Assembly: GCA_964552295.1 (NCBI GenBank)
Contig: CAZKFV010000101.1
Location: 2,401 to 66,400, forward strand
From: an uncultured Thermotogae bacterium
GTDB taxonomy: Bacteria > Bipolaricaulota > Bipolaricaulia > UBA7950 > UBA9294
Reading direction: 5' to 3'
DNA length: 64,000 bases
Shown: positions 10,550 through 46,009 of the stretch, piece by piece
How the letters are laid out: each line of letters begins with the position of its first letter
Position numbering within the stretch: position 1 is the stretch's first letter
The notes under the pieces: model-generated
Seen by the model: the letters and a program-made list of their open reading frames with translations, nothing else
What the model was told of the DNA's origin: nothing
Database searches by the model: none
Program-made: the position numbers and the translations under genes

Positions 10550-12304
10550 ATGAACAGAAGCCACTATTGTGCCCGCCTGTCAGCAAAAGACATCGGACAA
10601 CAGGTAACCCTGTGCGGTTGGGTAAAGCGACGGCGCGATTTGGGAAGGCTAACTTTCATTGATCTCCGTGATAGCTCAGGGGTGATACAGCTCATATATC
10701 CTGGTGATAATACCCAACTCGCCGAGGGACATACACTTAACCGAGAGGATGTGATAGCCGTTTCTGGCGTTGTTCGCCCTCGTAGCGAAGGAAATATAAA
10801 CGCAGATATGGCGACCGGTGAAATCGAGGTTGAAGTGCATGAAATGGAGATACTCAACCGTTCGTTAACTCCGCCCTTCTTGATAGAGGGGGATGGCTCG
10901 GACACTACGGAAGAAACCAGACTGCGCTATCGATACGTTGATCTTAGACGCTCAAGCATGCAACGAAACTTGCGCCTGCGCCATCGGGTTTTTCATGGCC
11001 TTCGAAGTTTCTTTACCGAGCAGGATTTCGTCGAGATAGAGACCCCTGTACTTACCAAATCCACACCAGAAGGCGCGCGTGATTTTCTAGTTCCCAGCAG
11101 AATGTCTCCTGGATCCTTCTATGCCCTACCGCAATCTCCCCAGTTGTTTAAACAGCTATTTATGATCGGAGGTATAGACCGCTATTTCCAACTAGTAAAG
11201 TGCTTCCGCGATGAGGATCTGCGCGCAGACCGCCAGCCTGAGTTCACACAGCTTGATCTAGAAGTCTCCTTTCCCGAAGGGAAGGACGAGATATTCTCGC
11301 TACTGGAGGGCGCCCTGCAGCGCGTATTCCAAGATCTGTTATCAATAGAGCTTTCAATACCATTTCCACGGATGACTCATGCAGAGGCACTTGCTCGCTA
11401 CGGATCGGACAAACCCGACCTGCGCTTTGCAATGGAGATACACGACATCTCAAAGATAGTCGGTCATTCTGGATTCCGCGTCTTTGCAGAAGCCGTGTCA
11501 AAGGGCGAAAAAGTAGCCGGAATCTGCGCTAAGGGATGCTCTGGTTACTCTCGTGCGCAAATTGATAGGTTGCAAGAGATAGCCATAGCAGCCGGAGCAA
11601 AAGGGATGTCATACATTAAGGTTCAAGAACAGGCCTCCTCCCCGCTTCTGAAGTTTGTAGAGCCAGGGATTATTGAATCGATCATCTCCTCCTTTGAAGC
11701 AGAGCGGGGTGATCTGATACTCATACTTTCCGGAGAAGGAGTCGAGCAAGGGCTTGGCGCTATTAGGCTGTCGATAGCCAGACAAGAGAAGCTTGCTGGG
11801 CAGGGCTGGAACTTCATCTGGATTACCGACTTTCCGCTTTTTGGCCTGGACGAGCAAGGCAATATTACCAGCGAACATCACCCATTTACCTCACCTCACG
11901 CAGAGGATTTACACCTTCTGGAGCAATCACCTCTAGCCGTAAGATCAAATGCCTACGATCTGGTCTTAAATGGGATGGAGATGGGAAGTGGGAGTATCCG
12001 TATCCACTCGCGCGCTATCCAAGAGAAGGTTCTAGGAATGCTGGGGATAACGCCGGAGAGCGCGGAGGCTAGGTTCGGCTTCTTTTTGCATGCCTTGGAC
12101 TACGGAGCGCCCCCGCATGGCGGATTTGCCTTGGGATTAGACCGGCTAGTTATGCTGATGGCCGGCGAGAAGTCACTGCGGGACGTAATCGCCTTTCCGA
12201 AAACCACTGCGGGGATCTGTCCGCTAACAGACGCTCCAATGCCAGTAGATGACACCCAACTGGAAGAACTGGGACTGGCCCGCAGAGGGAGAGATTTATC
12301 TTGA
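10550..12304 (+). CDS. aspS: aspartyl-tRNA synthetase
   Basis: Class II aaRS blocks: [30 protein letters not shown] (motif 2) and [12 protein letters not shown] (motif 3). SD AAAGGAG lies just upstream of ATG 10550. The ORF-track start at 10496 would add 18 improbable residues. Confidence 0.92.
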
Positions 12305-12419
12305 AGCAAGCTACCCAACCAGATAAAGTCCAACAACTTGAGCTTATTATAGCCTTATCATAAGGATTAGCGCACGTTGAAGCGCGAAGTAATAGGGCGG
12401 ATAATTTCGTGGACTAGCC

Positions 12420-13328
12420 GTGAAAAAACCAGATAGCACACACATACGGAAGCTCATGTTGACCTTGGTGCTGATTGCCTTGGTCGCGGTTGTGTTCATT
12501 CTCGCTTCGGGAATAGATAGCGTAAGTCCCCTTGCTGGCAAGCGCCTTCCAAACCCATTTGCGGGCTTTGGAGACATCGCTCTATCAGAAAGCACTCAGG
12601 GATCGCCATGGGGAGCAAACACATTACGCATACTGATTCAGGCTCTCTTTGCTCTCGGAGCAGCAGCTGTTCTGCTTTTTGTCATCTTTTCAAGAGAGCA
12701 CAGGAAGCAGTTTGCTATTATTGCTGTTTTCCTGCTACTTATCACCTTGATCCTGGCCCAAGTGCGGGAGATTCCACAATCCCAACAACAAGTTCAATTG
12801 CAAAATGAGATGAATACAGAAATCGGACAGCCTCCACTTGTCGAGCAAGTGGAGATAGACATTCCAAAGGTCAATCCAACAAACTGGCAGTTGATAGTCA
12901 TAGCCCTTGGATCCTCATTGGTTCTAACCCTAGCTGGTTCCGTCTTCTTCATCAAGGTCTACCCGTTGCTTCGTTCACGTTCTTCGAATCGGATAAGTAT
13001 CTTAAACCAATTAGGCAAAAGCGCGGGCCTGGCTGCCCATCGAATAGTCACAGGTGATGATCCGCGGGCTGCTATTCTTCGATGCTATCAGGAAATGACA
13101 CAGATAGTAAGTAAACATGACGGGGTGCCCGACCACTCGTACTTCACCCCACGCGAGTTCGCCTCGCGCCTGAGCCAACGAGGGATGAACAACAAAGACG
13201 TTGACAGGTTGACCGCCATTTTTGAGGCTGTACGTTACGGTGGGCGGAGCGGAGCGGACTTTGTCAACGAAGCCATCTCTTGCCTACGATCAATTCATCG
13301 AACTCACGCACTGGGAGAGCCTGTATGA
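12420..13328 (+). CDS. membrane protein with C-terminal DUF4129-like domain
   Basis: GTG start and several TM segments. The C-terminus YFTPREFASRL...FEAVRYGGRS resembles the DUF4129 (transglutaminase-associated) signature. Confidence 0.6.
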   Translation: MKKPDSTHIRKLMLTLVLIALVAVVFILASGIDSVSPLAGKRLPNPFAGFGDIALSESTQGSPWGANTLRILIQALFALGAAAVLLFVIFSREHRKQFAIIAVFLLLITLILAQVREIPQSQQQVQLQNEMNTEIGQPPLVEQVEIDIPKVNPTNWQLIVIALGSSLVLTLAGSVFFIKVYPLLRSRSSNRISILNQLGKSAGLAAHRIVTGDDPRAAILRCYQEMTQIVSKHDGVPDHSYFTPREFASRLSQRGMNNKDVDRLTAIFEAVRYGGRSGADFVNEAISCLRSIHRTHALGEPV

Positions 13329-13915
13329 GACGCAAACCTAGGCTAGGGACTATCTTTATTGGCTTTGGTATCTTCATCAGCCTGACACTCGTCTTTGCTT
13401 TTCCATTAAGGACAATCTTCATGAGATCGATTGTCACTCCGCTCATAGATTCCATCCTGGTGCTGCGCTGGTACGTTCATCGATTACCACAGCTCATGCT
13501 ATGGATCATACTTATCATTGCTGGATCAATCATAGCAATGCGATTTCTAACAAGAGCATTTCCGTTTCCCAAGAGAAGAAAAACACAGCGATATAGCTTC
13601 TCCAAGCCTGATGCGAGAAGCGATCTCCAGCAGCTCTGCACACTGATTGATCGTAGCTCCCATCACACGTTTGCCCGCCGCAGAATCGCAAGCGAACTAG
13701 CACCTTTGTGTATACGGCTTATCGCTCACCGTGAGAGGCTGCTGCTAGGAGAGGCCAGCAAGCGCTTCAAGTCATTTCAATGGTGCGACGATGAGGCGGT
13801 GAAGACATTCTTTGATTTCCGCCAACCATATCACAGCATCAAGAAAGGAAAAGCTTTTCGCGCGAGGTTGGATCATGTTGTCTCTTTTCTCGAACGCTAT
13901 TACCAGGGGGTATAA
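13325..13915 (+). CDS. hypothetical membrane protein (2-3 TM + basic helical cytoplasmic domain)
   Basis: ATG 13325 overlaps the upstream stop as ATGA (13325-13328). The translation begins MRRKPRLGTIFIGFGIFISLTLVFAF.... The gene ends immediately before the MoxR ATG. Confidence 0.5.
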   Translation: MRRKPRLGTIFIGFGIFISLTLVFAFPLRTIFMRSIVTPLIDSILVLRWYVHRLPQLMLWIILIIAGSIIAMRFLTRAFPFPKRRKTQRYSFSKPDARSDLQQLCTLIDRSSHHTFARRRIASELAPLCIRLIAHRERLLLGEASKRFKSFQWCDDEAVKTFFDFRQPYHSIKKGKAFRARLDHVVSFLERYYQGV

Positions 13916-14866
13916 ATGGATATTGAAGCAACTGGTGAAAGAAGCCAGGCGATTATCGATGAAGTAAGCAAGGCAATCGTAGGTAAAGGTCCCCTTTTAA
14001 GCAAGGTGATGGTAGGCCTTCTTGCTGGGGCACATATCCTTTTTGAGGATTATCCAGGTCTTGCAAAGACGTTGATCGCTCGCAGCTTCGCTCAGGTACT
14101 GGGAATGGATTTTAAGCGCATCCAATTCACCCCTGACTTACTTCCAAGCGATATAACCGGTTCACATGTATTCGATCGCGAGACAGAGGAATTCACCCTT
14201 ACCGTTGGCCCTATATTTGCCAACATAATCCTTGCCGACGAGATCAACCGCGCTACGCCAAAGACACAGTCAGCACTACTAGAGGCAATGCAGGAATCGC
14301 AAGTAACAATAGACGGCGAAACCCATCCCCTTCCACTACCATTTATAGTCATAGCTACTCAGAACCCAATCGAATACGAGGGCACCTTTCCTCTGCCAGA
14401 AGCCCAGCTGGATCGTTTTATGGTTCGCCTCTCGGTGGGATATCCAAATAAAGACGAGGAAGTAGAGATATTAAGAAGAAGGCGAGAAAGAAAATCCGAC
14501 GAGATAAGGCTGACTCCCATCGCTAGTGCTGCCACTTTGCTGGAAATGCGTGCTTGCGTTGAAGAGATCTTCGTCGAGCCGGACATAGAGAGATACATAG
14601 TTTCAATCGTTGAAAGAACACGCACCGATAATGAAGTCTACGTAGGCTCCAGTCCTCGCGGATCTCTTGCCCTTCTGAAGCTCGCGCGGGCTCAGGCAGC
14701 CCTTTCTGGAAGAGACTTCGTCTTGCCCGATGATGTGAAGGAGTTTGCAGGACCAGCGTTGGCGCACCGCTTGATCCTCAATCCGGATCTTTGGTCAAAG
14801 AGGGTAACCGCAGCCGATATCATAGAAAGGATACTTCGACTTGTGCCCGTGCCAAAGGTAGACTAA
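13916..14866 (+). CDS. MoxR-family AAA+ ATPase
   Basis: AAA_3/MoxR blocks: YPGLAKT (Walker A-like), ILADEINRATPKTQSALLEAMQE (Walker B/sensor) and FIVIATQNPIEYEGTFPLPEAQLDRF. Confidence 0.9.
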   Translation: MDIEATGERSQAIIDEVSKAIVGKGPLLSKVMVGLLAGAHILFEDYPGLAKTLIARSFAQVLGMDFKRIQFTPDLLPSDITGSHVFDRETEEFTLTVGPIFANIILADEINRATPKTQSALLEAMQESQVTIDGETHPLPLPFIVIATQNPIEYEGTFPLPEAQLDRFMVRLSVGYPNKDEEVEILRRRRERKSDEIRLTPIASAATLLEMRACVEEIFVEPDIERYIVSIVERTRTDNEVYVGSSPRGSLALLKLARAQAALSGRDFVLPDDVKEFAGPALAHRLILNPDLWSKRVTAADIIERILRLVPVPKVD

Positions 14867-14868
14867 GC

Positions 14869-16152
14869 GTGTCCGGTTCTGGAAAGATTGGTACCATATT
14901 GACAATCGCCATAATGCTCTTGATTTTTGGCGTTGTTATAAGAGACGGAAGGGTCTTGAGCATAACTATCCCGTTCTTTCTATACGCTGGGGTCGCTCTG
15001 TTGAGCGCCGGTAAGGCTCGTGCGCCAGACATTATTCTTAGCAGAAAGCTAAGCACAGCCAGAACAACAGAAGGAGAAACGGTTGAAGTCGTAGTCACCC
15101 TAGAAAATACCGGCCCCCCGATCCCCTGGATTGGGGTAGTTGACCATATTCCATCTGAACTGTTAATTAAACAAGGTACAACTAGGCACTTCGCTAAGCT
15201 TGATGCAGGTGAGAAGACCACCTTTTTTTACACGTTGCGAGTTCCAAGAGGCTTGCATACGCTTGCGGGTGCAGACATAACCACGTGGCAGAAGACAACC
15301 CTAGTACCAAAACACGAGTTTCTTACAAGCAGTACAGACATCCTTGCTATTCCCATAGCGGAGCCAATAGGTGACATTGAAATAAGGCCAGAGCGTACGC
15401 GAGCCTACGCGGGGCTAGTCCGGGCAAGCATGGGAGGAAGCGGAATAGATTTCTTTGGATGCCACGCATACTCAAGCGGTGATGACATCCGTCGCATAAA
15501 CTGGCGGGCCTACGCGCGAACCCGCAAACTGATAGTCAATGAGTATGAACAAGAGAGGATCGCAGACATCACAATATTCCTTGACGCGCGGGAAAGAGCC
15601 AACCCAATCGTGGGAGAGAAGACAACATTTACGTACTCAGTTCGCGCTGCAGCGTCTATGTCAAGTTATTTCATCAAAAAAGGTAACAACGTTGGCTTGT
15701 TCATCTACGGTGAATACATGAACTGGACCTTTCCTGGGTATGGCAAGAATCAGCTAAGGAGAATCCTAGATTCACTAGCATTAGCCCAGACAGCCAATAA
15801 AGACGTCTTTGATGACCTCCAGGCTGTTCCAACTCGGCTCTTCCCGCCACGTTCGCAGCTGGTGATGATATCTGGATCTCTAGACGAGCACGATGTAGAG
15901 ATCATAGGAGTACTACGCGCCCGTGGCTACAGAATTATTATGATCATACCAGATATGCTTAGTTGCAAGGCACAACAGATCCCTACGACCCAGGAAAGCA
16001 CCTTGGCGCTACGCATCGTCAACCTTCGCCGTAGGCTGATAGTGGACGCTCTTGCCCGAATCGGGGTGGAAGTAGTTCAGTGGAACACTGCCTACTCATT
16101 GGCATCAGTTACTTCCTGGATCCTATCCAGACAGGGGCGCAGACTAGCATGA
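14869..16152 (+). CDS. DUF58 domain protein (MoxR partner, vWA-like fold)
   Basis: GTG 14869 lies 2 nt after the MoxR stop. N-terminal TM pair. Signature FFGCHAYSSGDDIRRINWRAYARTRKLIVNEYEQER...ITIFLDA. Confidence 0.85.
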   Translation: MSGSGKIGTILTIAIMLLIFGVVIRDGRVLSITIPFFLYAGVALLSAGKARAPDIILSRKLSTARTTEGETVEVVVTLENTGPPIPWIGVVDHIPSELLIKQGTTRHFAKLDAGEKTTFFYTLRVPRGLHTLAGADITTWQKTTLVPKHEFLTSSTDILAIPIAEPIGDIEIRPERTRAYAGLVRASMGGSGIDFFGCHAYSSGDDIRRINWRAYARTRKLIVNEYEQERIADITIFLDARERANPIVGEKTTFTYSVRAAASMSSYFIKKGNNVGLFIYGEYMNWTFPGYGKNQLRRILDSLALAQTANKDVFDDLQAVPTRLFPPRSQLVMISGSLDEHDVEIIGVLRARGYRIIMIIPDMLSCKAQQIPTTQESTLALRIVNLRRRLIVDALARIGVEVVQWNTAYSLASVTSWILSRQGRRLA

Positions 16153-16643
16153 GAAAGCTAGCAATGATATTTTCCATATCAAGCGCAGCGTTGATCGCCT
16201 TTACGTCCGCAAAGGCAGAATCTATTCCCCTTATGATTGGGGCAATCGCTTTTGGACTAGCTTGGATCATTGTTGTATCAATGGATGCCTCACCAGTAAA
16301 CATAAGCATGCTTTTAGCTGCAGAAACTGCTATCGCCTGTCTGAATATACTTTATGGGGCGTCTTTTTATCTGACAGGCTTAGCAATCGGTCTTTTCATC
16401 ATATCGTGGGATCTAGCCTTAACTGCCAGGACAATCGCAGGCTTATCATCAACTAACAGAAGACGCTTTTGCATCCATCACTTCATTCAGATAGCGACTA
16501 TCTCAGCGCTAGGATTTGGGTTTCTTATCATACCGAATCAGATTGAAATGACCATTGGTTTCCGAACCGCCCTTGGACTGAGCATGGCAGCATTGATGCT
16601 TGCCTGTCTTCTACTTAAGCTCATTACCAATAGAACCTCTTAG
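16149..16643 (+). CDS. hypothetical polytopic membrane protein
   Basis: ATG 16149 overlaps the DUF58 stop as ATGA (16149-16152). About 5 hydrophobic segments and no recognisable motif. Confidence 0.5.
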   Translation: MRKLAMIFSISSAALIAFTSAKAESIPLMIGAIAFGLAWIIVVSMDASPVNISMLLAAETAIACLNILYGASFYLTGLAIGLFIISWDLALTARTIAGLSSTNRRRFCIHHFIQIATISALGFGFLIIPNQIEMTIGFRTALGLSMAALMLACLLLKLITNRTS

Positions 16644-16689: not shown

Positions 16690-16728
16690 GTCAACAAAAG
16701 AAAACGGGCGATCGTAATGACCGCCCGT
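16690..16728 (-). terminator. intrinsic terminator of the minus-strand surface-protein operon
   Basis: On the minus strand, acgggcggtc/gatcgcccgt forms a 10-bp stem with 1 mismatch (16704-16728). It is followed by TTTTCTTTTGTTG. It lies between the convergent stops at 16643 and 16745. Confidence 0.55.
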
Positions 16729-16744
16729 GTGATCACATAAAGAT

Positions 16745-17428
16745 TTATTGGAAAATGACAGCATCTCCACTTATCGATACCTTAACTCGCCCATTGGAGT
16801 AACCGCTGATTGTGCCACCTAACGAAGGCGACCCCCTGCCAGCAGAGGGATAGAGGAAGTAAGATACTATCCATGTCTCCCCTGCCTGCATCGGATTCAT
16901 CCACAGTATCTGTAGGTTCTGTCCTTCTTTCTTGGTCACTGCATCCCCAATATCTAGTATCTCCCATTGCCAACCAACAGGAATCGTTTCCTCAAGCCCT
17001 ACTGCCTTTATTTCGTCGTATGCGCTAACGGCGATCTCCACCAAAACTGAACCATTCTTATCTGGCGTTACCTCGCGTACCGCAAAGAGAGAGCTGTCTC
17101 CCACGTAAAGTCCCTTCTTACATGTAGTGTAACGACCTCCGCCTTCATTTACCCTAAGGGTAACAACAACAAAACCGTCCTTGTAGAACGCGTGCTCAAC
17201 GGTAGGCTGCGGTGTAGAAACGTCGTAAACTCCATCCCCATCGAAATCCCAATCATAGCTTACAGCATCATTTGACAAACTGTCCTGGCATACCGTAAAA
17301 CTGATGTCTTCTCCAACCTCTGGATTATAAGTGGCTGGCGAATAGTCCACAGCTCCAGCCTGCGCGGTTATGCCAAACAAGGCCATCACACCAGCAGCAA
17401 CGAGGAGCAACTTAAACCTATTATTCAT
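16745..17428 (-). CDS. secreted protein: PKD domain + unassigned 'GW' beta-module
   Basis: Signal peptide MNNRFKLLLVAAGVMALFGITAQA. PKD signature YDWDFDGDGVYD. The C-terminal ~110 aa carry GLEETIPVGW, shared with the two upstream large proteins. Confidence 0.7.
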   Translation of the reverse strand: MNNRFKLLLVAAGVMALFGITAQAGAVDYSPATYNPEVGEDISFTVCQDSLSNDAVSYDWDFDGDGVYDVSTPQPTVEHAFYKDGFVVVTLRVNEGGGRYTTCKKGLYVGDSSLFAVREVTPDKNGSVLVEIAVSAYDEIKAVGLEETIPVGWQWEILDIGDAVTKKEGQNLQILWMNPMQAGETWIVSYFLYPSAGRGSPSLGGTISGYSNGRVKVSISGDAVIFQ

Positions 17429-17478
17429 TTTCCCCTCCTAAAATCTCAGTTCTAGACCACGAAGCACATCCAAAAAAG

Positions 17479-19641
17479 CTAGAAAAGCGGATCATGCACC
17501 GAGGCATCAATCAACCAATAGGCGATTAGATCGCGGATGTCGTCAAGTGTGACAATTTCTTCTGCCGTGTAAGCTACCGGCTGTGTGCTTAACCACAGCG
17601 AAACCGCATACTGGATTTGCTCGAACGAAATCTGCTCTGGCAAGCAAAGATCGATATCTTCCCCCTCAATGTTCCAACGCGAGATAACAACTCTTATTGG
17701 AAGGCGTGATTTAAGTGTAATCTTGTCCTCGCCTGTGATCACCTCGGACAATCGCGGAGACGAGCTTCGCACAACACCGCTTAGGGTACCCTCAACGGGC
17801 TCATCACAGGCTGCGGGCGCAGTAAGGGTATATTCAATAACCCGTGTGTCGCCCGGCTCAAGCGTCTCCATGAATAGCCAGTCAATTGTGTCCCTACGTA
17901 ATGTGGCAGTAGCATTATCTTTTTCAGTGAACGTCCATCCGTCCGGTATGTTCTCATGCATGGTCAGACCATGTATTAGTGTGTTTGCGGTAAGCGTTAT
18001 TCGTACCTTAACAGCGGCACCGGCAATGGTTTCATCCCCGGGAATACAAGTATCTATATCCCTTAGCGCGGTAAGGCTCTTGATAACGTTTAGAGTCTTA
18101 CTCAAGACGTCGCTTTCGCCTTCATTGTCAGTTACCTTTAAATTGACCGTGGTTTCACGCGCCTCAACAAATGTGTGTCGTATGTCTGAGGAGGCTCCAT
18201 CGATCTCAAACACCCCATCACCGTCCAAATCCCACGCATATGAGACTATGCTCCCATCCGCGTCGTACGATCCACTAGCGTCAAGAACCGTGGAAACAGC
18301 AACACGGGGATCGGCAGGATCCGTATCAAACAAAGCAGTAGGCGAAGAGTTCTTCACCACAATTTGCTTAATGGCAGGCGCAGATACTCTACCATCATTG
18401 TCTGTCACCACAAGCCTCACGGTGTAACTACCGCTACAGGAATAGCTGTGTTTCGCGTGCTGAACATCCGAGGTGCTTCCATCTCCGAAGCTCCATTCCC
18501 ATGAGACAATCTCTCCATCGGCATCCTCTGATTGATCAGTGAATACGATCGCATCCGTCGTGCTCGCTTTGGTCGGTGAATACGAAAAGCAGGCCTCAGG
18601 CGGTGATGGCGGGGCAGGTGGTACAATGGCCATAAATGAGCTGCCTGAAACATCGAGCTTGCCGCTGGTTCCACGAAATGTCACGTAAGAAACGCTCGTC
18701 GCGCCTACGTCTGTTGATAATTTCCCCTTGCGCGTTGCCTGAACCGCAATATCGGCTTTCCACTCTCTTCCCAATTCAATGTCCCCAATCTCGAATGTTA
18801 GGCTTGTGGTCCCATCAGCGTTTGCAATTACGCGGGTAGCAGCTGGAATAGATCCCAGATAACTTACACCACTTGGAAGCACCTTGTTTAGGACCACGCT
18901 AGTGCCCGGCGCACTTACAGCAAGCAAGTCGTGTATTCTTGGTATAGTGGAACTGATAGGACGGCTGAAGAATCCTCCGTCAGTCTCCGTAGCAAAGCCC
19001 TGCAGTAGATTGCTGTCCATTAGATATCCAATCCCGACCGAAATAATCCGGATACCAGCTTGGCTGGACAAATCACCTTCTTCCGCCGGATCACGACCAA
19101 CATTGCTCTGTCCGTCAACCAGTAGAATTTCTGTTAGAATTGCATCCGGCCTGCTGTTACTAGTTAGCTCCAGACGAGCAACCTCTAGGGCGTCACCAAA
19201 AGCAGATTTACCACCGGTTTCCATATTCGCAATTGCTTGCTTCACTTCAAGCTTACTGTAACTGAGAGGCACAACAAGTTGCGCCGACGTGGAAAAGGAA
19301 ACCACGCCGACACGATCTTCTTCAGACAGTGAATCAATTAGATCGAAAGCAAATTCTTGGGCCTTAGAAATCTGCGCAGTGGCAGATAAATCTATAACGA
19401 TCACACAGTCGATAGGGTACCGCACGTCGCCACTGCCTCCACCAACCGACAGGCTAATCGTTGCCGTGTCCGGCATCCCCGTTCCGGCAACGTATATCTC
19501 CTGCGGACTTATGGACTGCCTAACCTCCAGGTGAGCCGCCCCGTCAGCAAGGGCTGGTACCGTGAACAGCACAAGTACCAGTAATAGCCCGGCGAGGGGT
19601 CTCCCCCTCGCCGTTGCTCTACTCTTCCTATTTTGTCTCAT
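17479..19641 (-). CDS. secreted vWA-domain protein with 2 PKD repeats, 'GW' module and C-terminal 'WL' module
   Basis: Signal anchor GLLLVLVLFTVPALA. vWA/MIDAS-like VIVIDLSAT...LLVDGQSN. PKD repeats WEWSFGDGS and YAWDLDGDG. GW module at aa 521-645 and WL module at aa 646-720. Confidence 0.75.
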   Translation of the reverse strand: MRQNRKSRATARGRPLAGLLLVLVLFTVPALADGAAHLEVRQSISPQEIYVAGTGMPDTATISLSVGGGSGDVRYPIDCVIVIDLSATAQISKAQEFAFDLIDSLSEEDRVGVVSFSTSAQLVVPLSYSKLEVKQAIANMETGGKSAFGDALEVARLELTSNSRPDAILTEILLVDGQSNVGRDPAEEGDLSSQAGIRIISVGIGYLMDSNLLQGFATETDGGFFSRPISSTIPRIHDLLAVSAPGTSVVLNKVLPSGVSYLGSIPAATRVIANADGTTSLTFEIGDIELGREWKADIAVQATRKGKLSTDVGATSVSYVTFRGTSGKLDVSGSSFMAIVPPAPPSPPEACFSYSPTKASTTDAIVFTDQSEDADGEIVSWEWSFGDGSTSDVQHAKHSYSCSGSYTVRLVVTDNDGRVSAPAIKQIVVKNSSPTALFDTDPADPRVAVSTVLDASGSYDADGSIVSYAWDLDGDGVFEIDGASSDIRHTFVEARETTVNLKVTDNEGESDVLSKTLNVIKSLTALRDIDTCIPGDETIAGAAVKVRITLTANTLIHGLTMHENIPDGWTFTEKDNATATLRRDTIDWLFMETLEPGDTRVIEYTLTAPAACDEPVEGTLSGVVRSSSPRLSEVITGEDKITLKSRLPIRVVISRWNIEGEDIDLCLPEQISFEQIQYAVSLWLSTQPVAYTAEEIVTLDDIRDLIAYWLIDASVHDPLF

Positions 19642-19673
19642 ACGTTACCGTCTCCTAGTCCAAGATAGACCCA

Positions 19674-21905
19674 CTAGTCACCGCATGGCATGCAGCCGGT
19701 GCTGCCTTCACAGGGTCCAAGCACTGATCCAGGAAGCGGATCACAGATGTTAGTGCTGGTCAGCCAGTAGGCAATGATCGTCTTCAGGGTCTCGTAGCTG
19801 ACGGTCCTGCCACAGGTGCGCGGTACAAGCTCATCCTCTAACCAAAATGCTATCGCTCTCTGTACTTGCTGGAATGAGATCTTGTCTGATAGGTTTATGT
19901 CGATCGTGTCGTTATCCACGTCCCAACGAGATATTGCCACAATCACCGGAAGACAATCGCTAACTATGACGGTGCTATCACCAGTCACAAATTTATCCTG
20001 ACACGGAAGTGCGCTATCAACAACACCCCTGATCTTATCGTTACTGACATAGCAAGGGTCGCTCCCACTTGTCTCTATTGCCTCAGTTTGTGGGACTTCA
20101 ACCTGATAGATAATTGTCTTCATCATTCCAGCTTGGATCTTGCTCGGATACACCCATTCAACCTGGGAGCGCTTGTAGATGAACCCGTCGTTTTCGATGG
20201 GGATTACCTTCCATCCAGTTGGCAAATCCTCTGCAAGCCCTACGCCATACATGTCTTGATCAGCGCTGATCTCGACCTTAACGGTGAACGTATTTCCCGC
20301 AAGGTTTCCTTGACCGTCGATGTAGTTCAGTAGTATGTTATTGCACGGCACGGGTGTGGCAATAGTGCGCACCGCGTTTATGTTCGCTTCCTCCATCGGG
20401 GGAAGGTCTACATCTACCGGCGTGCAGGTGTAAGCATACGCCGAGATCTCTTTCATATCTTCCAGGCCGATAACCGCGCCCTGAGTCCAAGGAACATATT
20501 CCTCATTCTGCCACATCTCCAATGCCCGCTTCAGCTGCTCCGGCGAGATTTTCTGCGATAAGCGGAGATCTATGCTGTCCTCGCTCTCATAGTCAAACCT
20601 GGGAACAAGGTGCGCAATAGCTGTATTCAAAGGCAAAGCATCCGTAACCTCTATGCTGTAATCACCTTCTACAGGCAACTCCAACGCTGGAGTGCGCGCT
20701 TGGAAGATACCAGCAATATCGAAACAGACAGGAAGCGTCGTTGCAACCAAATCGCTGCTTCCAGGAACAGTTACTTCATAGGAAATTACCTTAGTTGTAC
20801 CGGCTTTTATTCTGTCTATAAACACCCACTGCACAGCAGCTCGCTTGAAGGCAGCCCCCGCATTCTCCAAAGGCTTAATCTTCCAACCCACCGGAAGCTT
20901 CTCCTCCAAACCAACACCGGCAAGATCCATTTCTGGTTCAATACGAACAACAACCTTGAATGTACTTCCCGGAAGAGCGGAAACCGTCGAAATGGTTCGA
21001 GTCACGTTAACAGCAAGATCGGATATGTTAAGCGACATACTAAATCTCTCAGTCGCCCCTTCCGAGTCTGTGGCACGCAATGTGACCCGCTTTGTTCCTG
21101 CTAGCGTGTAGTTATACGTCACAACAGGACTTGTTACTTTCTCATCGAATAACCCGTCACCATCGAAATCCCACGCATACTCAGTTATTGTGCCATCCGG
21201 ATCAAACGTAGAGCTGGCGTCAAAGGTAACTGGCTCATTGATGTGGGGTTTAGTAGGCGAAGTAACAAATGATACTTGGGGTGGCTCATTTGGCGTTCCC
21301 TTAACTACTATACCATCAATTAGGTTAAGATCCACTGCTTGTGGAGCGTCCAAGGACCCTGTTAGAAACTTAGCCGCGGTAATTCCTGATGCAAACAACG
21401 GCATTACCTTGAGTTCGAAGTCCCTTCCCAGGGGTCCAAGTACCATTCCATCAGCCTTTCCTTCATCCCAATGCCAGGAAACCTTTCCAGTGGGAGGTGT
21501 AATCTCCCAGGTCTCGCGGAAATCAACCGCGCCATCATCCGCAACAATGAAATCTGCTCCAGCAGGAACACCTGATAGAGTAAATGTTGTTGTACCTGCC
21601 GCGCCCCCTGTATCGCTCAACAGTACAAACAGGGATATCTCGCCTGTCGTGGTATTGCGATACAGGAACATCACAGCTGTGTTTGTTTCTTCAAGGCCTG
21701 TATCCGACTGGTTGTTAGCCAGACTGTAATAATCGATTGCAGCGGTCGTTCCAGCCAGCGGCGTTATTTGCACCGACTCGACCCTATCCCCTTGGCTCAC
21801 CGTGTAGTACCCCGACTCCTGGGCAAGTACACTCGCCGAGAGTAGGAGGGTGCCGAGTACCAAGAGGAGGAAAAGGCCATAAAGGCTAACCTTATACACC
21901 TTCAT
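19674..21905 (-). CDS. secreted protein: unassigned N-domain + PKD + two (GW+WL) module pairs + Cys-rich tail
   Basis: ATG 21903-21905 is preceded by AGGAGG with 5-nt spacing; the ORF-track start at 21929 is less likely. Signal LYGLFLLLVLGTLLLSASVLA. PKD signature YAWDFDGDG. The C-terminus is GPCEGSTGCMPCGD. Confidence 0.7.
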   Translation of the reverse strand: MKVYKVSLYGLFLLLVLGTLLLSASVLAQESGYYTVSQGDRVESVQITPLAGTTAAIDYYSLANNQSDTGLEETNTAVMFLYRNTTTGEISLFVLLSDTGGAAGTTTFTLSGVPAGADFIVADDGAVDFRETWEITPPTGKVSWHWDEGKADGMVLGPLGRDFELKVMPLFASGITAAKFLTGSLDAPQAVDLNLIDGIVVKGTPNEPPQVSFVTSPTKPHINEPVTFDASSTFDPDGTITEYAWDFDGDGLFDEKVTSPVVTYNYTLAGTKRVTLRATDSEGATERFSMSLNISDLAVNVTRTISTVSALPGSTFKVVVRIEPEMDLAGVGLEEKLPVGWKIKPLENAGAAFKRAAVQWVFIDRIKAGTTKVISYEVTVPGSSDLVATTLPVCFDIAGIFQARTPALELPVEGDYSIEVTDALPLNTAIAHLVPRFDYESEDSIDLRLSQKISPEQLKRALEMWQNEEYVPWTQGAVIGLEDMKEISAYAYTCTPVDVDLPPMEEANINAVRTIATPVPCNNILLNYIDGQGNLAGNTFTVKVEISADQDMYGVGLAEDLPTGWKVIPIENDGFIYKRSQVEWVYPSKIQAGMMKTIIYQVEVPQTEAIETSGSDPCYVSNDKIRGVVDSALPCQDKFVTGDSTVIVSDCLPVIVAISRWDVDNDTIDINLSDKISFQQVQRAIAFWLEDELVPRTCGRTVSYETLKTIIAYWLTSTNICDPLPGSVLGPCEGSTGCMPCGD

Positions 21906-22024
21906 TGCTACCTCCTTTGTGCTCATCATTTGTATTCAGTTCGCAAAAATACACCATTACCATTCTACCAATCACCTTCCTTGAAAGTCTGTAACGTCAG
22001 TTACTGTTACCTCTCGCCGTCGGC

Positions 22025-22690
22025 TCACAGCAATACCGCCAATTGGTACAAGGCATTATCGATTGCCGCTTTTGCAGCCTCTGTCGGATCAGCTGTTAAC
22101 AAAGAAAAGAGGGGTTTGTCCTCTGTGGTAACAGCTGTGGTAAACTCTATCTCTCCAGAAGAGCTAAAGACTGTAACAAAAACACCGACGGTTGCCTTCT
22201 TTTCCATGCCCAAAAAGAGACCGAGCGGGCTGGTAAGTAGCTTGACTGAATTATCGAGAAAGGAGCTAGCCCCAAGGAAGAGCAAAGAACGCTCAGGACA
22301 AAAAGAGATAAAGCTCTCCCAACGTACAATCCGAAAGACAACCAGATGATTCGCATCCAGTGCCTGTGCCAGCCTGCGCATCCCGTCAAGCGGAACGCTG
22401 TTTCCGATGTAAGTGTTCGTCAGCCTCTGCGCGTACATCAATTCTCCGGCTGAGGCAACGCTAGATCCGGTAATGACTGCGCAGTGCTGACTGGCGTAGT
22501 TCTTCAGTATATCTAGCTGTGCTGCTGGAACAGGAACCGCAGCCTGCACAAAAACCCCCACCTTTTCCTTCTGGCCGAACGCCGGCACGATCATCGTAAG
22601 AATGATCAACAGGAAAACAATTCCGCACAATGCGTTGCGCGCTCTGGTCAACATATCTCGTCCCACCACCCATTTGGATCCGTGTTTCAT
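22025..22690 (-). CDS. hypothetical protein with N-terminal signal anchor (first gene of surface-protein operon)
   Basis: Hydrophobic N-terminus ALCGIVFLLIILTMIVPAFG. No recognised motif. The start is uncertain (ATG 22690 or 22654). Confidence 0.45.
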   Translation of the reverse strand: MKHGSKWVVGRDMLTRARNALCGIVFLLIILTMIVPAFGQKEKVGVFVQAAVPVPAAQLDILKNYASQHCAVITGSSVASAGELMYAQRLTNTYIGNSVPLDGMRRLAQALDANHLVVFRIVRWESFISFCPERSLLFLGASSFLDNSVKLLTSPLGLFLGMEKKATVGVFVTVFSSSGEIEFTTAVTTEDKPLFSLLTADPTEAAKAAIDNALYQLAVLL

Positions 22691-23363: not shown

Positions 23364-23392
23364 AGTATATCCCCGCGTCTTGCCGCTGTCAA
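23364..23392 (-). promoter_or_regulatory. near-consensus sigma70 promoter for rplM
   Basis: Minus strand: TTGACA (23392-23387), a 17-nt spacer, then TATACT (23369-23364). It is followed by a 26-nt leader with AAGGAG before ATG 23337. Confidence 0.55.
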
Positions 23393-41912: not shown

Positions 41913-42516
41913 CTGCGCGAGTATGCTTTTGGTCTTTCTTACTCACCAAGCATCACTGTATTACGTCTCTTTTGAAAGCCACCCTGTTAGCACAACTACC
42001 TTCAACTACCCACTCGAAACAGCAGAGAACCAATTTATTGCATACTTTGACTGTTAGCTCGATATAATATCGCATTAATTAAGCACAAGTAGTACATGGT
42101 AAAGAATACTTAGATGCATTCCGTACAATCCTTTTTTAAGCACTAACTAAATTATCTGCCTATTCTTTGGCGCTCGGTTTTTTCAACGTCCGAGGGCAAA
42201 AACTCTCTGCTAGAGCTTCCCCCTTTAGCGCTGATGCAGTCCATATTCTTTTTGTCAAACCCGAGGTCTTCGCCCTTGCCCTTTTCGTAAAATATTTATT
42301 TATGGAGTGTCATTGCATTCCGCATTTAGAATTTAGTTGTAGAAGGCACTTTTCTCAACACTGTAACGAGACATTATGCATCATACCCTATATTATAAAA
42401 CATTACTTTGTTTGACTTGACCGTGTCTTGTCAAAAGCTGGATTGCGTAATAAGCGCTAAGCATGAAAAATACTGGACAATCGGAGACTAGGAGACAAAT
42501 TAAACAAGTCCATCAC

Positions 42517-42545
42517 TTGACTTCTGCACATTTAAGTGCTAGAAT
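42517..42545 (+). promoter_or_regulatory. sigma70-like promoter for the liv operon
   Basis: TTGACT (42517-42522), a 17-nt spacer, then TAGAAT (42540-42545). This leaves a ~140-nt leader before the livH start at 42690. Confidence 0.45.
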
Positions 42546-42689
42546 CGCGCGTGTTTTGCAGATCTAGGTATCTTGTATTTCAGATGTTTAGGAACAGTGC
42601 GCATATTAATTGAAGACTGTTTAGTTATCTTAGTAGGCAATGTTCTCTTGTATTAAGCGTTACACTAATTCTGCAAAGGCGGGTGTGGT

Positions 42690-43565
42690 ATGTTTCTGCG
42701 CGTTATTGTAATTGGCCTGTCGCTTGGCGCAGTTTATGCGTTGATATCCATTGGCTATAGCATGGTATATGGCATCCTGAAACTGATGAATTTCGCCCAC
42801 GGTGATATCTACGTCTTCGGGACATTCATCGCTTATATGCTCATGCAGCAATATGAAGTGAACATGTTTCTGGCTATTTTCTTGGCCATGGTAGTGGGCG
42901 GAGTACTAGCTTCAATAGTTGAAATCGTTGCATATCGTCCATTGCGTGGCAAGTCATTTAGGAATATGTCCATGATAAGTGCGCTGGGCGTCGCATACAT
43001 AATACAGAATTTCTCAGAGAATATCTGGACTACCAGGGTCCATTTCTTCCCCTCCATCATCACCATCCCATTTGTAAACATCTTCGGTGTAAAGATACCG
43101 GCTACTCAACTTGCTACCTTGGCCATCGTAATAGCAGTAGTAGTCGTGCTAAACCTTTTCTTAAAACATCACAAAGTCGGCAAAGCTATCCTGTGCATGT
43201 CGCAAGATATCCCTACAGCAAGCCTGATGGGCATACCCGCAAACAAGACTATTGAGATTGTCTACGTGCTAGGTGGGATGCTCGGCGTTATAGCTGGAGT
43301 TCTCTACGCGTCTTCTTACAACTCCCTATCGATCAGCATGGGGTTCTCTGGGACAATAGTCGCCTTTACCGCTGCAGTCATCGGGGGCATAGGCAGCATG
43401 AACGGAGCTCTAGTTGGTGGACTGCTCTTAGGACTTATTCATAGCATTGTTGGCGTATATATTTCGACTGCTTATCGAGATGTTATAACTTTCGCCTTCC
43501 TAATTGTCGTTTTATTGATCAGGCCTAGAGGTATTCTGGGAGAATATGTTGAGGAAAAGGTGTAG
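42690..43565 (+). CDS. livH: branched-chain amino acid ABC transporter permease
   Basis: Polytopic LivH/BraD pattern (GLSLGAVYALISIGYSMVYG...NFAHGD...). Confidence 0.88.
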   Translation: MFLRVIVIGLSLGAVYALISIGYSMVYGILKLMNFAHGDIYVFGTFIAYMLMQQYEVNMFLAIFLAMVVGGVLASIVEIVAYRPLRGKSFRNMSMISALGVAYIIQNFSENIWTTRVHFFPSIITIPFVNIFGVKIPATQLATLAIVIAVVVVLNLFLKHHKVGKAILCMSQDIPTASLMGIPANKTIEIVYVLGGMLGVIAGVLYASSYNSLSISMGFSGTIVAFTAAVIGGIGSMNGALVGGLLLGLIHSIVGVYISTAYRDVITFAFLIVVLLIRPRGILGEYVEEKV

Positions 43566-43568
43566 ACC

Positions 43569-44528
43569 GTGAATAGAAGCAGGCGCTTTATAGCTCTCAT
43601 TTTGATCGCAGTAATGACATTTCTTATCCCTACCGTGGTTAAGAGCGGATACTGGTTAGGAGTTCTGAACCTCCTACTTCTATACGTGATACTTGGACTG
43701 GGACTGAACTTAATAGCAGGTTACACTGGACTGCTATCGTTCGGCCATGCGGCCTTCTATGGGCTCGGCGCATACACTGCCGGTATTTTGCTAACTCGAT
43801 CGAACCTTCCTTTTCTGCTCGTCTTACTGCTATCGGGATTGATCGCCTTCGCAGCTGGTTTCGTGCTATCTACTTCGACAGCCAGGGTTCGTGGTGATTA
43901 TTTTGTCATCATAACCATTATATTTGGTGAAGTCTTTAGACTGGTAGCACAAGCTTGGAGGTCTTTTACCGGCGGGGCGATGGGAATAGTAGGCATTCCT
44001 GCCCCAAAAATCTTCTCTTGGACAATGATATCTGAGAAAGACTATTTCTTTTTCGGCCTAATACTTTTCTGGTTTACTTATGTTACACTCCATATGTTGG
44101 TTAAGTCCAAGTATGGGCGCGCTTTTGTCGCTATTCGCGAAGATCAACTGGCTGCTTCCGCTGCTGGAATCAATACAACACTGTACAAGATCCTGGCCTT
44201 TTCAATCGGTACTTTCTACGCTGGGATTGCTGGCTGTTATTCCGCAGTCTATAACACAGCTATAGATCCATCAGGATTCACGCTTGCTGAATCTTGTCTA
44301 ATGGTAATTATGGTCGTACTGGGAGGCTCCGGCAATCTTTTGGCCACTATTCCGGGTGTTGCTGTTATGGTTATCATTACAGAAGCTTTCCGACCACTAT
44401 ACCATTACCGCATACTTCTAATCGGCTTCATTATGGTAGCTATCATAGTAAGATATCCATATGGCTTTTGGGGAATCTATCAGGCGTTATCATCACGAAT
44501 CAGCAAATACGCTAAGAAGAAGGCATAA
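43569..44528 (+). CDS. livM: branched-chain amino acid ABC transporter permease
   Basis: GTG start. LivM/BraE pattern (GLNLIAGYTGLLSFGHAAFYGLGAY...). Confidence 0.88.
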   Translation: MNRSRRFIALILIAVMTFLIPTVVKSGYWLGVLNLLLLYVILGLGLNLIAGYTGLLSFGHAAFYGLGAYTAGILLTRSNLPFLLVLLLSGLIAFAAGFVLSTSTARVRGDYFVIITIIFGEVFRLVAQAWRSFTGGAMGIVGIPAPKIFSWTMISEKDYFFFGLILFWFTYVTLHMLVKSKYGRAFVAIREDQLAASAAGINTTLYKILAFSIGTFYAGIAGCYSAVYNTAIDPSGFTLAESCLMVIMVVLGGSGNLLATIPGVAVMVIITEAFRPLYHYRILLIGFIMVAIIVRYPYGFWGIYQALSSRISKYAKKKA

Positions 44529-45301
44529 TGGAACAACAAACACTGCTTCAAAGCGAAGATATAAGGAAGGACTTCGGTGGCATACATGCGGTACGCGACT
44601 TAAATGTTTCAATTAACAAGGGCGAAATTGTTGGAATGATCGGCCCTAATGGTTCAGGCAAGACCACCTTTTTCAATATACTGTCCAGCATATACCGCCC
44701 AGATTCGGGCACTATAAGATTCAAAGGCGAGGATATTACACATTTACCAATATACGCTATCGTAGCCAAGGGTATTACTAGAACTTTTCAGAACCTAAGG
44801 GTTTTCAGAGATATATCAGTGTTGGAGAACGTGTTAATTGGAAGACATCATTTAATTAACACTTCATTATTGCACCTCTATTTCAACCCTTTTCTAGCCC
44901 TCAAGAGGGAAAAGGAAGCGTATCTTAAGGCTATTGAACTCTTGAGATTAGTACACTTAGAGAATCAAGAGCGTGAATATGCAAGAAATCTACCTTACGG
45001 CCAGCAAAGGCTATTGGAAATAGCTCGAGGGCTGATGGCGGAACCGGACTTGTTACTTCTTGACGAACCAACTGCTGGTATGAACCCTAAGGAGGTAGCA
45101 GTATTGTGCTCGTTCTTAGAGGAGGTTAGGGAAAGAGGGTTTAGCCTTTTCATCATCGAGCACAATATGAAAGCAATCATGTCACTTGCAGACAGGATTA
45201 TCGTTTTAAATGCGGGCGCCAAAATAAGAGAAGGTACGCCAAGCGAGATTCAGGCAGATGAAGAAGTAAAAGAAATATACCTGGGAAAAGAGGAAGACTG
45301 A
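44528..45301 (+). CDS. livG: branched-chain amino acid ABC transporter ATP-binding protein
   Basis: Walker A GPNGSGKTT, signature YGQQRLLE, Walker B LLLLDEP. The start overlaps the livM stop. Confidence 0.9.
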   Translation: MEQQTLLQSEDIRKDFGGIHAVRDLNVSINKGEIVGMIGPNGSGKTTFFNILSSIYRPDSGTIRFKGEDITHLPIYAIVAKGITRTFQNLRVFRDISVLENVLIGRHHLINTSLLHLYFNPFLALKREKEAYLKAIELLRLVHLENQEREYARNLPYGQQRLLEIARGLMAEPDLLLLDEPTAGMNPKEVAVLCSFLEEVRERGFSLFIIEHNMKAIMSLADRIIVLNAGAKIREGTPSEIQADEEVKEIYLGKEED

Positions 45302-46009
45302 ATGCTTGAGATTAAAGAGCTATCTGCTGGGTACGGACATATTGAGGTGTTGCACAAGCTATCTGTGCAAATCGTAGAGCCAGAGATTATAGCCCTAGTT
45401 GGGGCAAACGGCGCCGGAAAGACTACATTACTTAAGACGATCTCAGGGTTGCTGCGCCCTACTATGGGAACAATCACATTTATGGGCGAGGAACTTAACA
45501 AAATAGCCCCTGAGAAGATAGTCAGATTAGGAATTGCACATGTCCAGGAGGGCAGGCAGGTATTCCCAAATTCCACTATCAAGGTCAATCTGGAAATGGG
45601 TGGTTACATCAGGAAGGACTCTAAAGAACTCCTAAAGTCAATGCAGCAATACTACGAAATGTTTCCTATTCTTTTTGAAAGGCGCAATATGCCTGCCTCC
45701 CTATTAAGTGGAGGGGAACAGCAGATGCTAGTTATTGCCAGAGCCTTAATGAGTAATCCAAAGCTTCTTCTGTTGGACGAACCATCGATGGGGCTTGCTC
45801 CCAATCTTGTAAACGAGGTGTTCAGTATTATCGAAGACATCCATTCGCAGGGAGTAGCTGTTTTCCTAGTTGAACAAAACGTGAAGAAGGCTCTCCAGAT
45901 ATCTAAGAGAGGTTATGTAATAGAGACAGGAAGCATTGTTCTTCAGGGGGCTGCAGAAGAGCTCTTAGATTCAGATGAAGTGAGAAAGGCATATTTAGGA
46001 GTAGTATAA
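45302..46009 (+). CDS. livF: branched-chain amino acid ABC transporter ATP-binding protein
   Basis: Walker A GANGAGKTT, signature SGGEQQML, Walker B LLLLDEP. Confidence 0.9.
   Translation: MLEIKELSAGYGHIEVLHKLSVQIVEPEIIALVGANGAGKTTLLKTISGLLRPTMGTITFMGEELNKIAPEKIVRLGIAHVQEGRQVFPNSTIKVNLEMGGYIRKDSKELLKSMQQYYEMFPILFERRNMPASLLSGGEQQMLVIARALMSNPKLLLLDEPSMGLAPNLVNEVFSIIEDIHSQGVAVFLVEQNVKKALQISKRGYVIETGSIVLQGAAEELLDSDEVRKAYLGVV

Follow-up and report, generated by a model that had tools for sequence, protein, structure and literature searches.

How do exported proteins that carry no anchoring signal of their own stay with the cell that makes them? The question is raised by a cluster of four minus-strand genes in a stretch of 64,000 nt (hereafter the window) from an uncultured Thermotogae bacterium (GCA_964552295.1, contig CAZKFV010000101.1, positions 2,401-66,400 of the forward strand; GTDB lineage Bacteria; Bipolaricaulota; Bipolaricaulia; UBA7950; UBA9294). 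The genes encode, in this order, a small protein of 221 residues (P221) and three proteins, P743, P720 and P227, that are built from PKD domains, a vWA domain and two repeated modules, here termed GW and WL. We find a real, undescribed gene cluster that is conserved across the phylum and consists mostly of known kinds of parts, together with three families absent from Pfam and NCBIfam. Tentatively, and at somewhat less than an even chance, we read it as encoding a constitutive extracytoplasmic envelope complex, in which P221 would be the membrane anchor for three disulfide-stabilised immunoglobulin-like (Ig)/vWA proteins.

Conservation and layout of the cluster

Scanning one genome per species with a P221 alignment gave 54 loci, nearly all labelled Bipolaricaulota; some carry the labels of other metagenome-assembled genomes, which are taken to be mislabels. 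The order rplM-P221-P743-P720-P227 is kept on one strand in every one of these species-representative loci with enough flank, far more than a first-pass annotation of this DNA had required when it proposed checking whether the four genes occur together in any relative. Median identity to the window proteins is 77% for the rplM product, 69% for MoxR, 66% for P743, 61% for P221, 43% for P720, 40% for DUF58 and 36% for P227, which makes P743 (52 loci) the most conserved of the three large proteins, close to the neighbouring AAA+ ATPase MoxR. Adhesins that meet variable ligands are expected to be far less conserved than P743 and P221; at their level of conservation, these two would more readily have fixed partners than a changing ligand from the environment. 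Additionally, the divergent contig L064 has no vWA gene between its P743-like gene and the P227-like gene that comes directly behind it, which suggests that P743 and P227 are the core pair there. No published description of the four-gene cluster was found in the literature searched, in keeping with the first-pass annotation, which had named it a candidate for an undescribed system; one of its modules, GW, appears to be of a known type, DUF11.

The open reading frames lie at 22025-22690 (221 aa), 19674-21929 (751 aa), 17479-19641 (720 aa) and 16745-17428 (227 aa), separated by 119, 32 and 50 nt. The 751-aa frame most likely starts at an ATG eight codons in, because an AAGGAGG site precedes this internal ATG; the resulting 743-aa protein therefore leaves a gap of 119 nt to P221, and the genes, lengths and gaps first proposed are all reproduced. 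The true start of P221 is probably M13 at 22654, giving 209 aa, since its homologues almost all have this length. The operon is closed by an intrinsic terminator (16694..16728, minus strand), also seen in the first-pass annotation, with a 10-bp stem of 7 G-C pairs (16728-16704 on the minus strand) and then a T-run; TTTCTTTTGT directly follows the stem.

Wherever the upstream flank is long enough, the gene immediately before the P221 homologue is rplM, which encodes ribosomal protein L13 (22888..23337, minus strand, in the window). Upstream of rplM, a promoter-like site TTGACA-17-TATACT (23364..23392, minus strand) has 11/12 consensus matches and may drive rplM and the four genes; since shuffled sequence is expected to contain as many promoter-like sites as the region does in total, this one is a lead only. 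No comparable promoter-like site and no terminator-like site were found in the interval between rplM and P221, and co-transcription of the four genes with rplM is possible. An Rfam search of the window found no RNA family.

All four N-termini, read directly from the sequence, show the Sec-type features that had been noticed before, namely a stretch of basic residues, a core of hydrophobic ones and an A-x-A/A-x-G-type site, with predicted cleavage at AQA↓G, ALA↓D, VLA↓Q and AFG↓Q. Similarly, the reported lack of anchoring signals holds: none of the four proteins has an LPXTG, lipobox or PEP-CTERM motif, and anchoring in the manner of a sortase pilus, a lipoprotein or a PEP-CTERM protein was rejected because these motifs are absent. 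The mature large proteins are acidic (isoelectric point ~4.3), with cysteine counts of 2, 6 and 11 (11 in P743). Their repeated modules are real, as P720 matches P743 with E = 9e-45 and 1e-29 and P227 matches both with E of about 5e-18.

P221 and a possible envelope complex

P221 (22025..22690, minus strand) has no match in Pfam, NCBIfam or the PDB sequences. There are 166 homologues, with identities of 58-100% among the 120 listed, and the few that have a source name belong to Bipolaricaulota/Acetothermia. The AlphaFold2 (AF2) model (predicted local distance difference test, pLDDT, 80.8) runs from an N-terminal hydrophobic helix through a long-stranded alpha/beta sandwich, with a helical hairpin (residues 120-149) inserted between two long beta-strands, to a C-terminal helix. 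Foldseek matches this model with probability 1.00 to the LPHT ring of Vibrio (E = 1.3e-5), FlgT (2e-5), CsgG (7e-5), GNA1162 (9e-5), TraT (1.5e-4) and PelC (2e-4); LpoB and LptE are also among the matches, the full range being 1e-5 to 6e-3, and query-normalised template modelling (TM) scores to CsgG/TraT/PelC-type proteins are 0.41-0.51. A protein in which the first-pass annotation had seen no recognisable motif is thus predicted to share the alpha/beta core of CsgG, TraT, PelC, FlgT and LpoB, with E = 1e-5 to 1e-4 for this type of fold.

The matched proteins are periplasmic or outer-membrane proteins of diderm bacteria; among them, CsgG, TraT and PelC have been solved as oligomers and FlgT in the flagellar ring. 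The fold therefore makes P221 a candidate answer to the question of how the cluster proteins stay at the cell. The hairpin, PERSLLFLGASSFLDNSVKLLTSPLGLFLG (22208..22297, minus strand), has its two helices at residues 120-130 and 135-149 of the model; it is conserved, with many residues invariant or nearly so in the homologue alignment, and moderately hydrophobic (mean Kyte-Doolittle hydropathy 0.69). The N-terminal region has no conserved cysteine across 43 homologues and no lipobox. A curli-like secretion channel appears a less likely role for P221 than an anchor: the model places alpha-helices at the positions of the membrane beta-hairpins of CsgG, and folded, disulfide-bonded Ig proteins would presumably not pass a CsgG-type pore.

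A second line of evidence comes from cysteines in 118 full GW-WL units. Alignment columns 30 (first GW strand, T-C-[IL]-P) and 285 (WL loop, D-[LP]-C-L) carry cysteine together in 20/20 cases, the GW cysteine of column 30 never being present without its WL counterpart, and a second pair, columns 234 and 325, co-occurs in 36/36. Because GW and WL cysteines co-occur, we infer that intrachain disulfides fix each WL to its own GW; the cysteines are also an argument that the proteins fold outside the cytoplasm.

In the envelope complex that we propose, P221 would be located in the outer membrane, the "toga", where it may form an oligomeric ring, and would act as anchor or platform for P743, P720 and P227, because these three large proteins have no anchor of their own and the P221 fold is typical of outer-membrane-associated proteins. 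Each GW and WL would form one rigid, disulfide-stapled unit, and the putative metal site of the vWA domain and the WL-less GW of P227 would make contacts inside the complex or with a ligand. The first cultured member of the Bipolaricaulota stains Gram-negative and is enclosed in an outer sheath ("toga"), and electron cryo-microscopy shows a surface layer (S-layer) of hexagonal pattern on it; the passages searched name no genes for the toga or the S-layer (bioRxiv 10.1101/2025.11.21.689855).

Several points weigh against this proposal. Oligomerisation of P221, its outer-membrane location and its contact with the other three proteins are things that we only infer; it has no lipobox, unlike CsgG, TraT, PelC and LpoB, its TM scores to these proteins are only 0.41-0.51, with no sequence-level relation, its hairpin is only moderately hydrophobic (mean hydropathy 0.69), and its fold also occurs in proteins that are not solved as rings here (LpoB, LptE). 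The putative GW-WL disulfide is deduced from cysteine co-occurrence, and the proteins may lie on the cell surface, in the periplasm or free outside the cell. Also, synteny beside rplM could partly reflect phylum-wide conservation of gene order.

Bipolaricaulota branch deeply and have only just been brought into culture; their outer membrane is unusual, resembling a toga, and they have a surface layer. A set of four genes that stays beside the gene of a ribosomal protein across the phylum, its main component about as conserved as the housekeeping-type ATPase nearby, offers a concrete candidate for a part of this envelope. The cluster also brings three families new to Pfam and NCBIfam: WL (~200 representative clusters), whose range takes in other secreted proteins and at least one haloarchaeon; the N-domain of P743; and a non-lipidated fold-level relative of CsgG/TraT/PelC. 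In the new isolate, proteomics and cryo-electron tomography can be aimed directly at these proteins.

Modules of the three exported proteins

P743 (19674..21905, minus strand, as are all modules below) consists of a signal peptide, an N-domain, a PKD domain, two successive GW+WL pairs and a Cys-rich tail. The N-domain (21279..21827, ~180 aa) has no match in Pfam or the PDB, so that it stays unassigned as in the first-pass annotation; a search limited to 8000 candidates gave few outside relatives, among them other, unannotated secreted proteins (P0323, P0325, P0327 and P0328) related to it at 30-33% identity. The PKD domain (21045..21290) scores 54 bits with PKD_4 and matches the PKD domains of collagenase ColH in the PDB (E = 1e-15). 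It is followed by GW-a (20640..21044), an Ig domain of the DUF11/CLIPPER type placed by a local hidden Markov model (HMM), the two-helix module WL-a (20400..20636; local HMM E = 2.6e-28), GW-b (19953..20396; local HMM E = 1.7e-36) and WL-b (19731..19952; local HMM E = 1.5e-36). The C-terminal tail, GSVLGPCEGSTGCMPCGD / GPCEGSTGCMPCGD (19677..19730), fits no known sorting signal, and tails vary among the homologues, carrying one to three cysteines.

S-layer proteins usually have few or no cysteines and are poorly conserved. A classical S-layer protein was kept only as a low-probability case for P743, because it has 11 cysteines. Two observations on related contigs concern the same protein. In the near-identical metagenome contig ML8_10000831 (L003, 5530-7755) its gene is called as fragments of 170, 64 and 532 aa, probably owing to frameshifts or assembly errors. 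In another contig (L063, 1-5712), the N-domain relative P0325 (33%) is one of six consecutive genes on one strand, which may be another uncharacterised secreted-protein cluster; Pfam has no recorded match for them, the search having covered the four that are not at the contig ends.

P720 (17479..19641) has a signal peptide, a vWA domain, a DUF11-like spacer, two PKD domains, GW and WL. Its vWA domain (18967..19410, residues 78-225) scores 67.3 bits with VWA (PF00092; cut-off 23.8) and carries a motif resembling a metal-ion-dependent adhesion site (MIDAS), a variant of D-x-S-x-S...T...D with [KR]-S in place of the usual Thr, then D-G-Q. The motifs D-x-S-x-[TS], [KR]-S-A-[LF]-G and D-G-Q are kept in 51/51 homologues, and this conservation argues for a functional, if putative, metal-dependent binding site. 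Behind it come the beta-rich spacer (18601..18936; DUF11 E = 0.0089, 16.8 bits, below cut-off), the two PKD domains (PF18911/PF00801; 18097..18600; PKD_4 96 bits over two stretches, plus a K319L-like PKD), GW (17707..18102; NPCBM_assoc E = 0.0068, DUF11 E = 0.033, local HMM E = 1.4e-39) and WL (17485..17703), the copy that was modelled, which has no match in Pfam, NCBIfam or the PDB. The vWA and PKD domains read by eye in the first-pass annotation are thus borne out, whereas its spacer proved weakly DUF11-like and its GW assignable. P227 (16745..17428) has, as first described, only PKD (17123-17320; 29.3 bits, cut-off 27) and GW (16751-17119) behind its signal peptide, and no WL.

GW had at first been left unassigned. 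DUF11 (PF01345) passes its cut-off on GW-a of P743 (29.5 vs 24.6 bits), reaches 14.9-17.1 bits on P720 GW and GW-b of P743 (17.1 on the latter, below cut-off) and does not match P227 GW; of 16 members of the GW family, 10 match DUF11, six NPCBM_assoc and four bMG10. Judged by these profiles, GW is best read as an Ig domain of the DUF11/CLIPPER / NPCBM_assoc type. The GW profile found no match among PDB sequences, the CLIPPER structure 9IFR included. DUF11 was recently renamed CLIPPER and has a CnaA-like Ig fold that forms the stalks of fibrillar adhesins, often with an isopeptide bond, although some DUF11 domains are without it (bioRxiv 10.1101/2025.04.25.650565). The residues invariant among the 16 GW domains are R18, V33, E50, P53, W56, G84, Y91, P96, G114 and G129; from the isopeptide triad (Lys, Asn, catalytic Asp/Glu), neither an invariant Lys nor an invariant Asn is present, and the CLIPPER isopeptide bond is therefore not conserved in GW.

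Such domains bring to mind an ordinary fibrillar adhesin or biofilm-matrix set, whose proteins, either released or attached loosely, would use the vWA and N-domains to bind mineral, polymer or other cells, P221 being unrelated. Fibrillar adhesins do typically use vWA, PKD and DUF11/CLIPPER domains for adhesion and as stalks (bioRxiv 10.1101/2025.04.25.650565). The proteins are also acidic, with putative disulfides, and P720 (43%) and P227 (36%) diverge faster. However, P743, whose single-copy architecture is fixed, stands at 66%, near the 69% of the cytoplasmic MoxR, the same gene order is kept across the phylum beside rplM and never without P221, a long tandem array of stalk domains is not seen, and the CLIPPER isopeptide residues are not conserved, so that we consider a plain adhesin set unlikely, and less likely than an envelope complex.

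WL, also unassigned at first, has no match in Pfam, NCBIfam or the PDB sequences. The AF2 model of the P720 copy, built from 35 aligned copies (pLDDT 93.5), has three helices, one short (3-8) and two long (27-39 and 53-65), and a small beta-hairpin loop. Foldseek returned nothing significant for it; six of 17 weak matches are dockerins (E = 2.7-8.9, TM 0.33-0.43). An exhaustive profile search of 1.8 billion representatives found 197 clusters at E <=1e-3, 71 of them at E <=1e-10. The distant matches cover the two-helix core only (consensus aGxDgxIsLxEIQxAIxxWaxdxxVPxTGGxtIsLxxIQxLIxxWa) and lie mostly at the extreme C-terminus of secreted multidomain proteins, in a region that is unannotated there, with PKD, CARDB, NPCBM_assoc, beta-helix or PQQ as partner domains; one is a malectin-domain protein of the haloarchaeon Halogranum. 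Several of these distant relatives carry canonical EF-hand loops, such as DRNGNGWIDTPE, in the first repeat only, the best EF-hand scores being below threshold (EF-hand_6 21.7 vs 25 bits, E = 1.4e-4; EF-hand_7 17.1 vs 30). The window copies have no EF-hand match and no D-x-[DN]-x-D-G calcium loops. WL thus belongs to an EF-hand-like twin-helix family that is unannotated; it is a divergent form with no calcium loops, and dockerin-like in layout only.

The 148 representatives that contain WL fall into GW-WL (47), N-GW-WL-GW-WL (17), variants, and 46 with WL alone, most of which are core-only matches or fragments. WL comes after a GW domain in the majority of complete representatives, and in the complete proteins listed it begins within a few residues of the GW end. 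These data bear on the idea, put forward in the first-pass annotation, of a cohesin/dockerin-like assembly in trans, in which WL would plug into GW domains on other subunits, P227 would offer its GW as a free socket and vWA would be the ligand-binding head. The loop-helix-loop-helix layout of WL, the dockerins among its weak fold matches, the EF-hand loops of its distant relatives (EF-hand_6 E = 1.4e-4), the GW without WL in P227 and the pairing of a P227-like with a P743-like gene even in a locus that lacks the vWA gene all speak for such an assembly. On the other hand, the dockerin fold matches are non-significant (E >2, TM 0.33-0.43), hhalign gives the WL family a probability of 0.1% against three dockerins (CelS and two whose sequences were checked against the PDB), and Pfam yields no match to Dockerin_1 (PF00404) even at E up to 10. 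The window copies are without calcium-binding loops, little or no linker separates GW from WL in the complete proteins listed, the cysteines that co-occur in 20/20 cases suggest that WL is fixed to its own GW, and GW is a DUF11-type Ig domain rather than a cohesin, no cohesin domain having been detected in the cluster. The weak resemblance at fold level stands (6/17 Foldseek matches), but the profile comparisons do not bear the idea out, and we regard assembly of this kind as rather improbable.

A bolder form of the envelope complex can be imagined: an unrecognised envelope machine, near-universal in Bipolaricaulota, with a non-lipidated TraT/CsgG-fold ring anchored in the toga by alpha-helical hairpins and carrying an Ig/vWA lattice or fibre, its Ig domains capped by a new module, free of calcium and descended from an EF-hand/dockerin-like one. 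This could be the hexagonal surface layer itself; we put it forward as a long shot.

Neighbouring genes and known systems

A convergent unit on the plus strand (~11000-16643) encodes DUF4129, DUF7269, the AAA+ ATPase MoxR, DUF58 and a small membrane protein, and ends ~100 nt from the cluster terminator. The DUF4129-DUF7269-MoxR-DUF58 unit lies downstream in most related loci; in L001, L019, L021, L040, L055, L060 and L062 both DUF58 and MoxR went undetected there, and in L007, L030 and L032 MoxR alone did. That the cluster is a Bat-like partner of this unit, with the vWA protein as client or partner of the AAA+ ATPase in the manner of other MoxR-vWA pairs, is very unlikely, and less likely than an envelope complex: the unit is immediately downstream in the window and most loci and the P720 vWA weakly matches the BatA type (E = 1e-10), but the score is 41 bits where the cut-off is 380, the cluster and the unit are convergent and not co-transcribed, P720 vWA lies behind a Sec signal peptide and is thus exported while MoxR has no signal sequence, and DUF58 with MoxR is undetected in at least seven loci and MoxR alone in three more. 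We therefore treated the MoxR/DUF58 unit as a neighbour rather than as part of the cluster. The N-terminal part of the DUF58 protein (15022-15249, plus strand) matches the DUF11-like GW profile weakly (E = 0.031) and may be an Ig-like domain.

On the other side of the cluster, the gene next to rplM in the window and in loci L001-L062 is P221, not rpsI, the usual partner after rplM in bacteria; tblastn with E. coli S9 gave no match in the 64-kb window or in the flanks (up to ~9-10 kb on each side) of 62 related loci. In two related loci (L005, 2400-3221; L007, 446-1282; both minus strand), a predicted exported protein with PKD and an AhpC/thioredoxin fold is encoded a few genes upstream of the cluster, with no homologue in the window; it could be a disulfide oxidoreductase for the Cys-containing cluster proteins. 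Elsewhere in the window, G+C dips to 0.43 at 42000-46000, where, by eye, a Liv-type branched-chain amino-acid ATP-binding cassette transporter (two permeases, two ATPases and a binding protein) looks ordinary.

Compared with known systems, the cluster shares with fibrillar adhesins its exported, acidic, modular Ig-domain proteins, the DUF11-like GW, PKD and a vWA domain with a putative metal site. Unlike them, it has no long tandem arrays, no LPXTG, OmpA-like, type IX (T9SS) or type I (T1SS) secretion signals and no conserved isopeptide residues, and it differs also in the WL that caps each GW in P743 and P720, in its high conservation and in a fixed three-gene group accompanied by P221. WL resembles a dockerin or EF-hand pair as a duplicated loop-helix module of ~70 residues whose distant members carry D-x-N-x-[ND]-G-x-I-x-x-x-E loops and stand C-terminally in secreted multidomain proteins, and departs from dockerins in having no significant sequence, profile or fold match and in its fusion to an Ig domain, the linker between the two being short or absent. 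Sortase-assembled pili of Gram-positive bacteria combine a vWA tip adhesin, an Ig-fold backbone pilin and a small basal pilin. The cluster likewise encodes three exported Ig-fold proteins together, one with a vWA head that has a MIDAS-like motif; it differs in having no LPXTG, pilin motif, isopeptide triad or sortase, and in a diderm-like host.

P221, for its part, has no lipobox or lipidated cysteine, unlike CsgG, TraT, PelC and LpoB, matches TraT, CsgG, PelC and FlgT at the level of the fold only, with no sequence similarity, and is encoded among genes for Ig/vWA proteins, whereas its known fold relatives stand among curli, Pel, flagellar or conjugation genes. TraT is a decamer anchored in the outer membrane, and its protomer has three amphipathic membrane helices, one N-terminal and two in an inserted alpha3/alpha4 hairpin, with a beta-sandwich flanked by two helices (PMC11733297). 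In its model, P221 resembles TraT in its N-terminal hydrophobic helix, its helix-flanked beta-sandwich and an inserted hairpin that comes in the same order as the membrane-anchoring alpha3/alpha4 of TraT.

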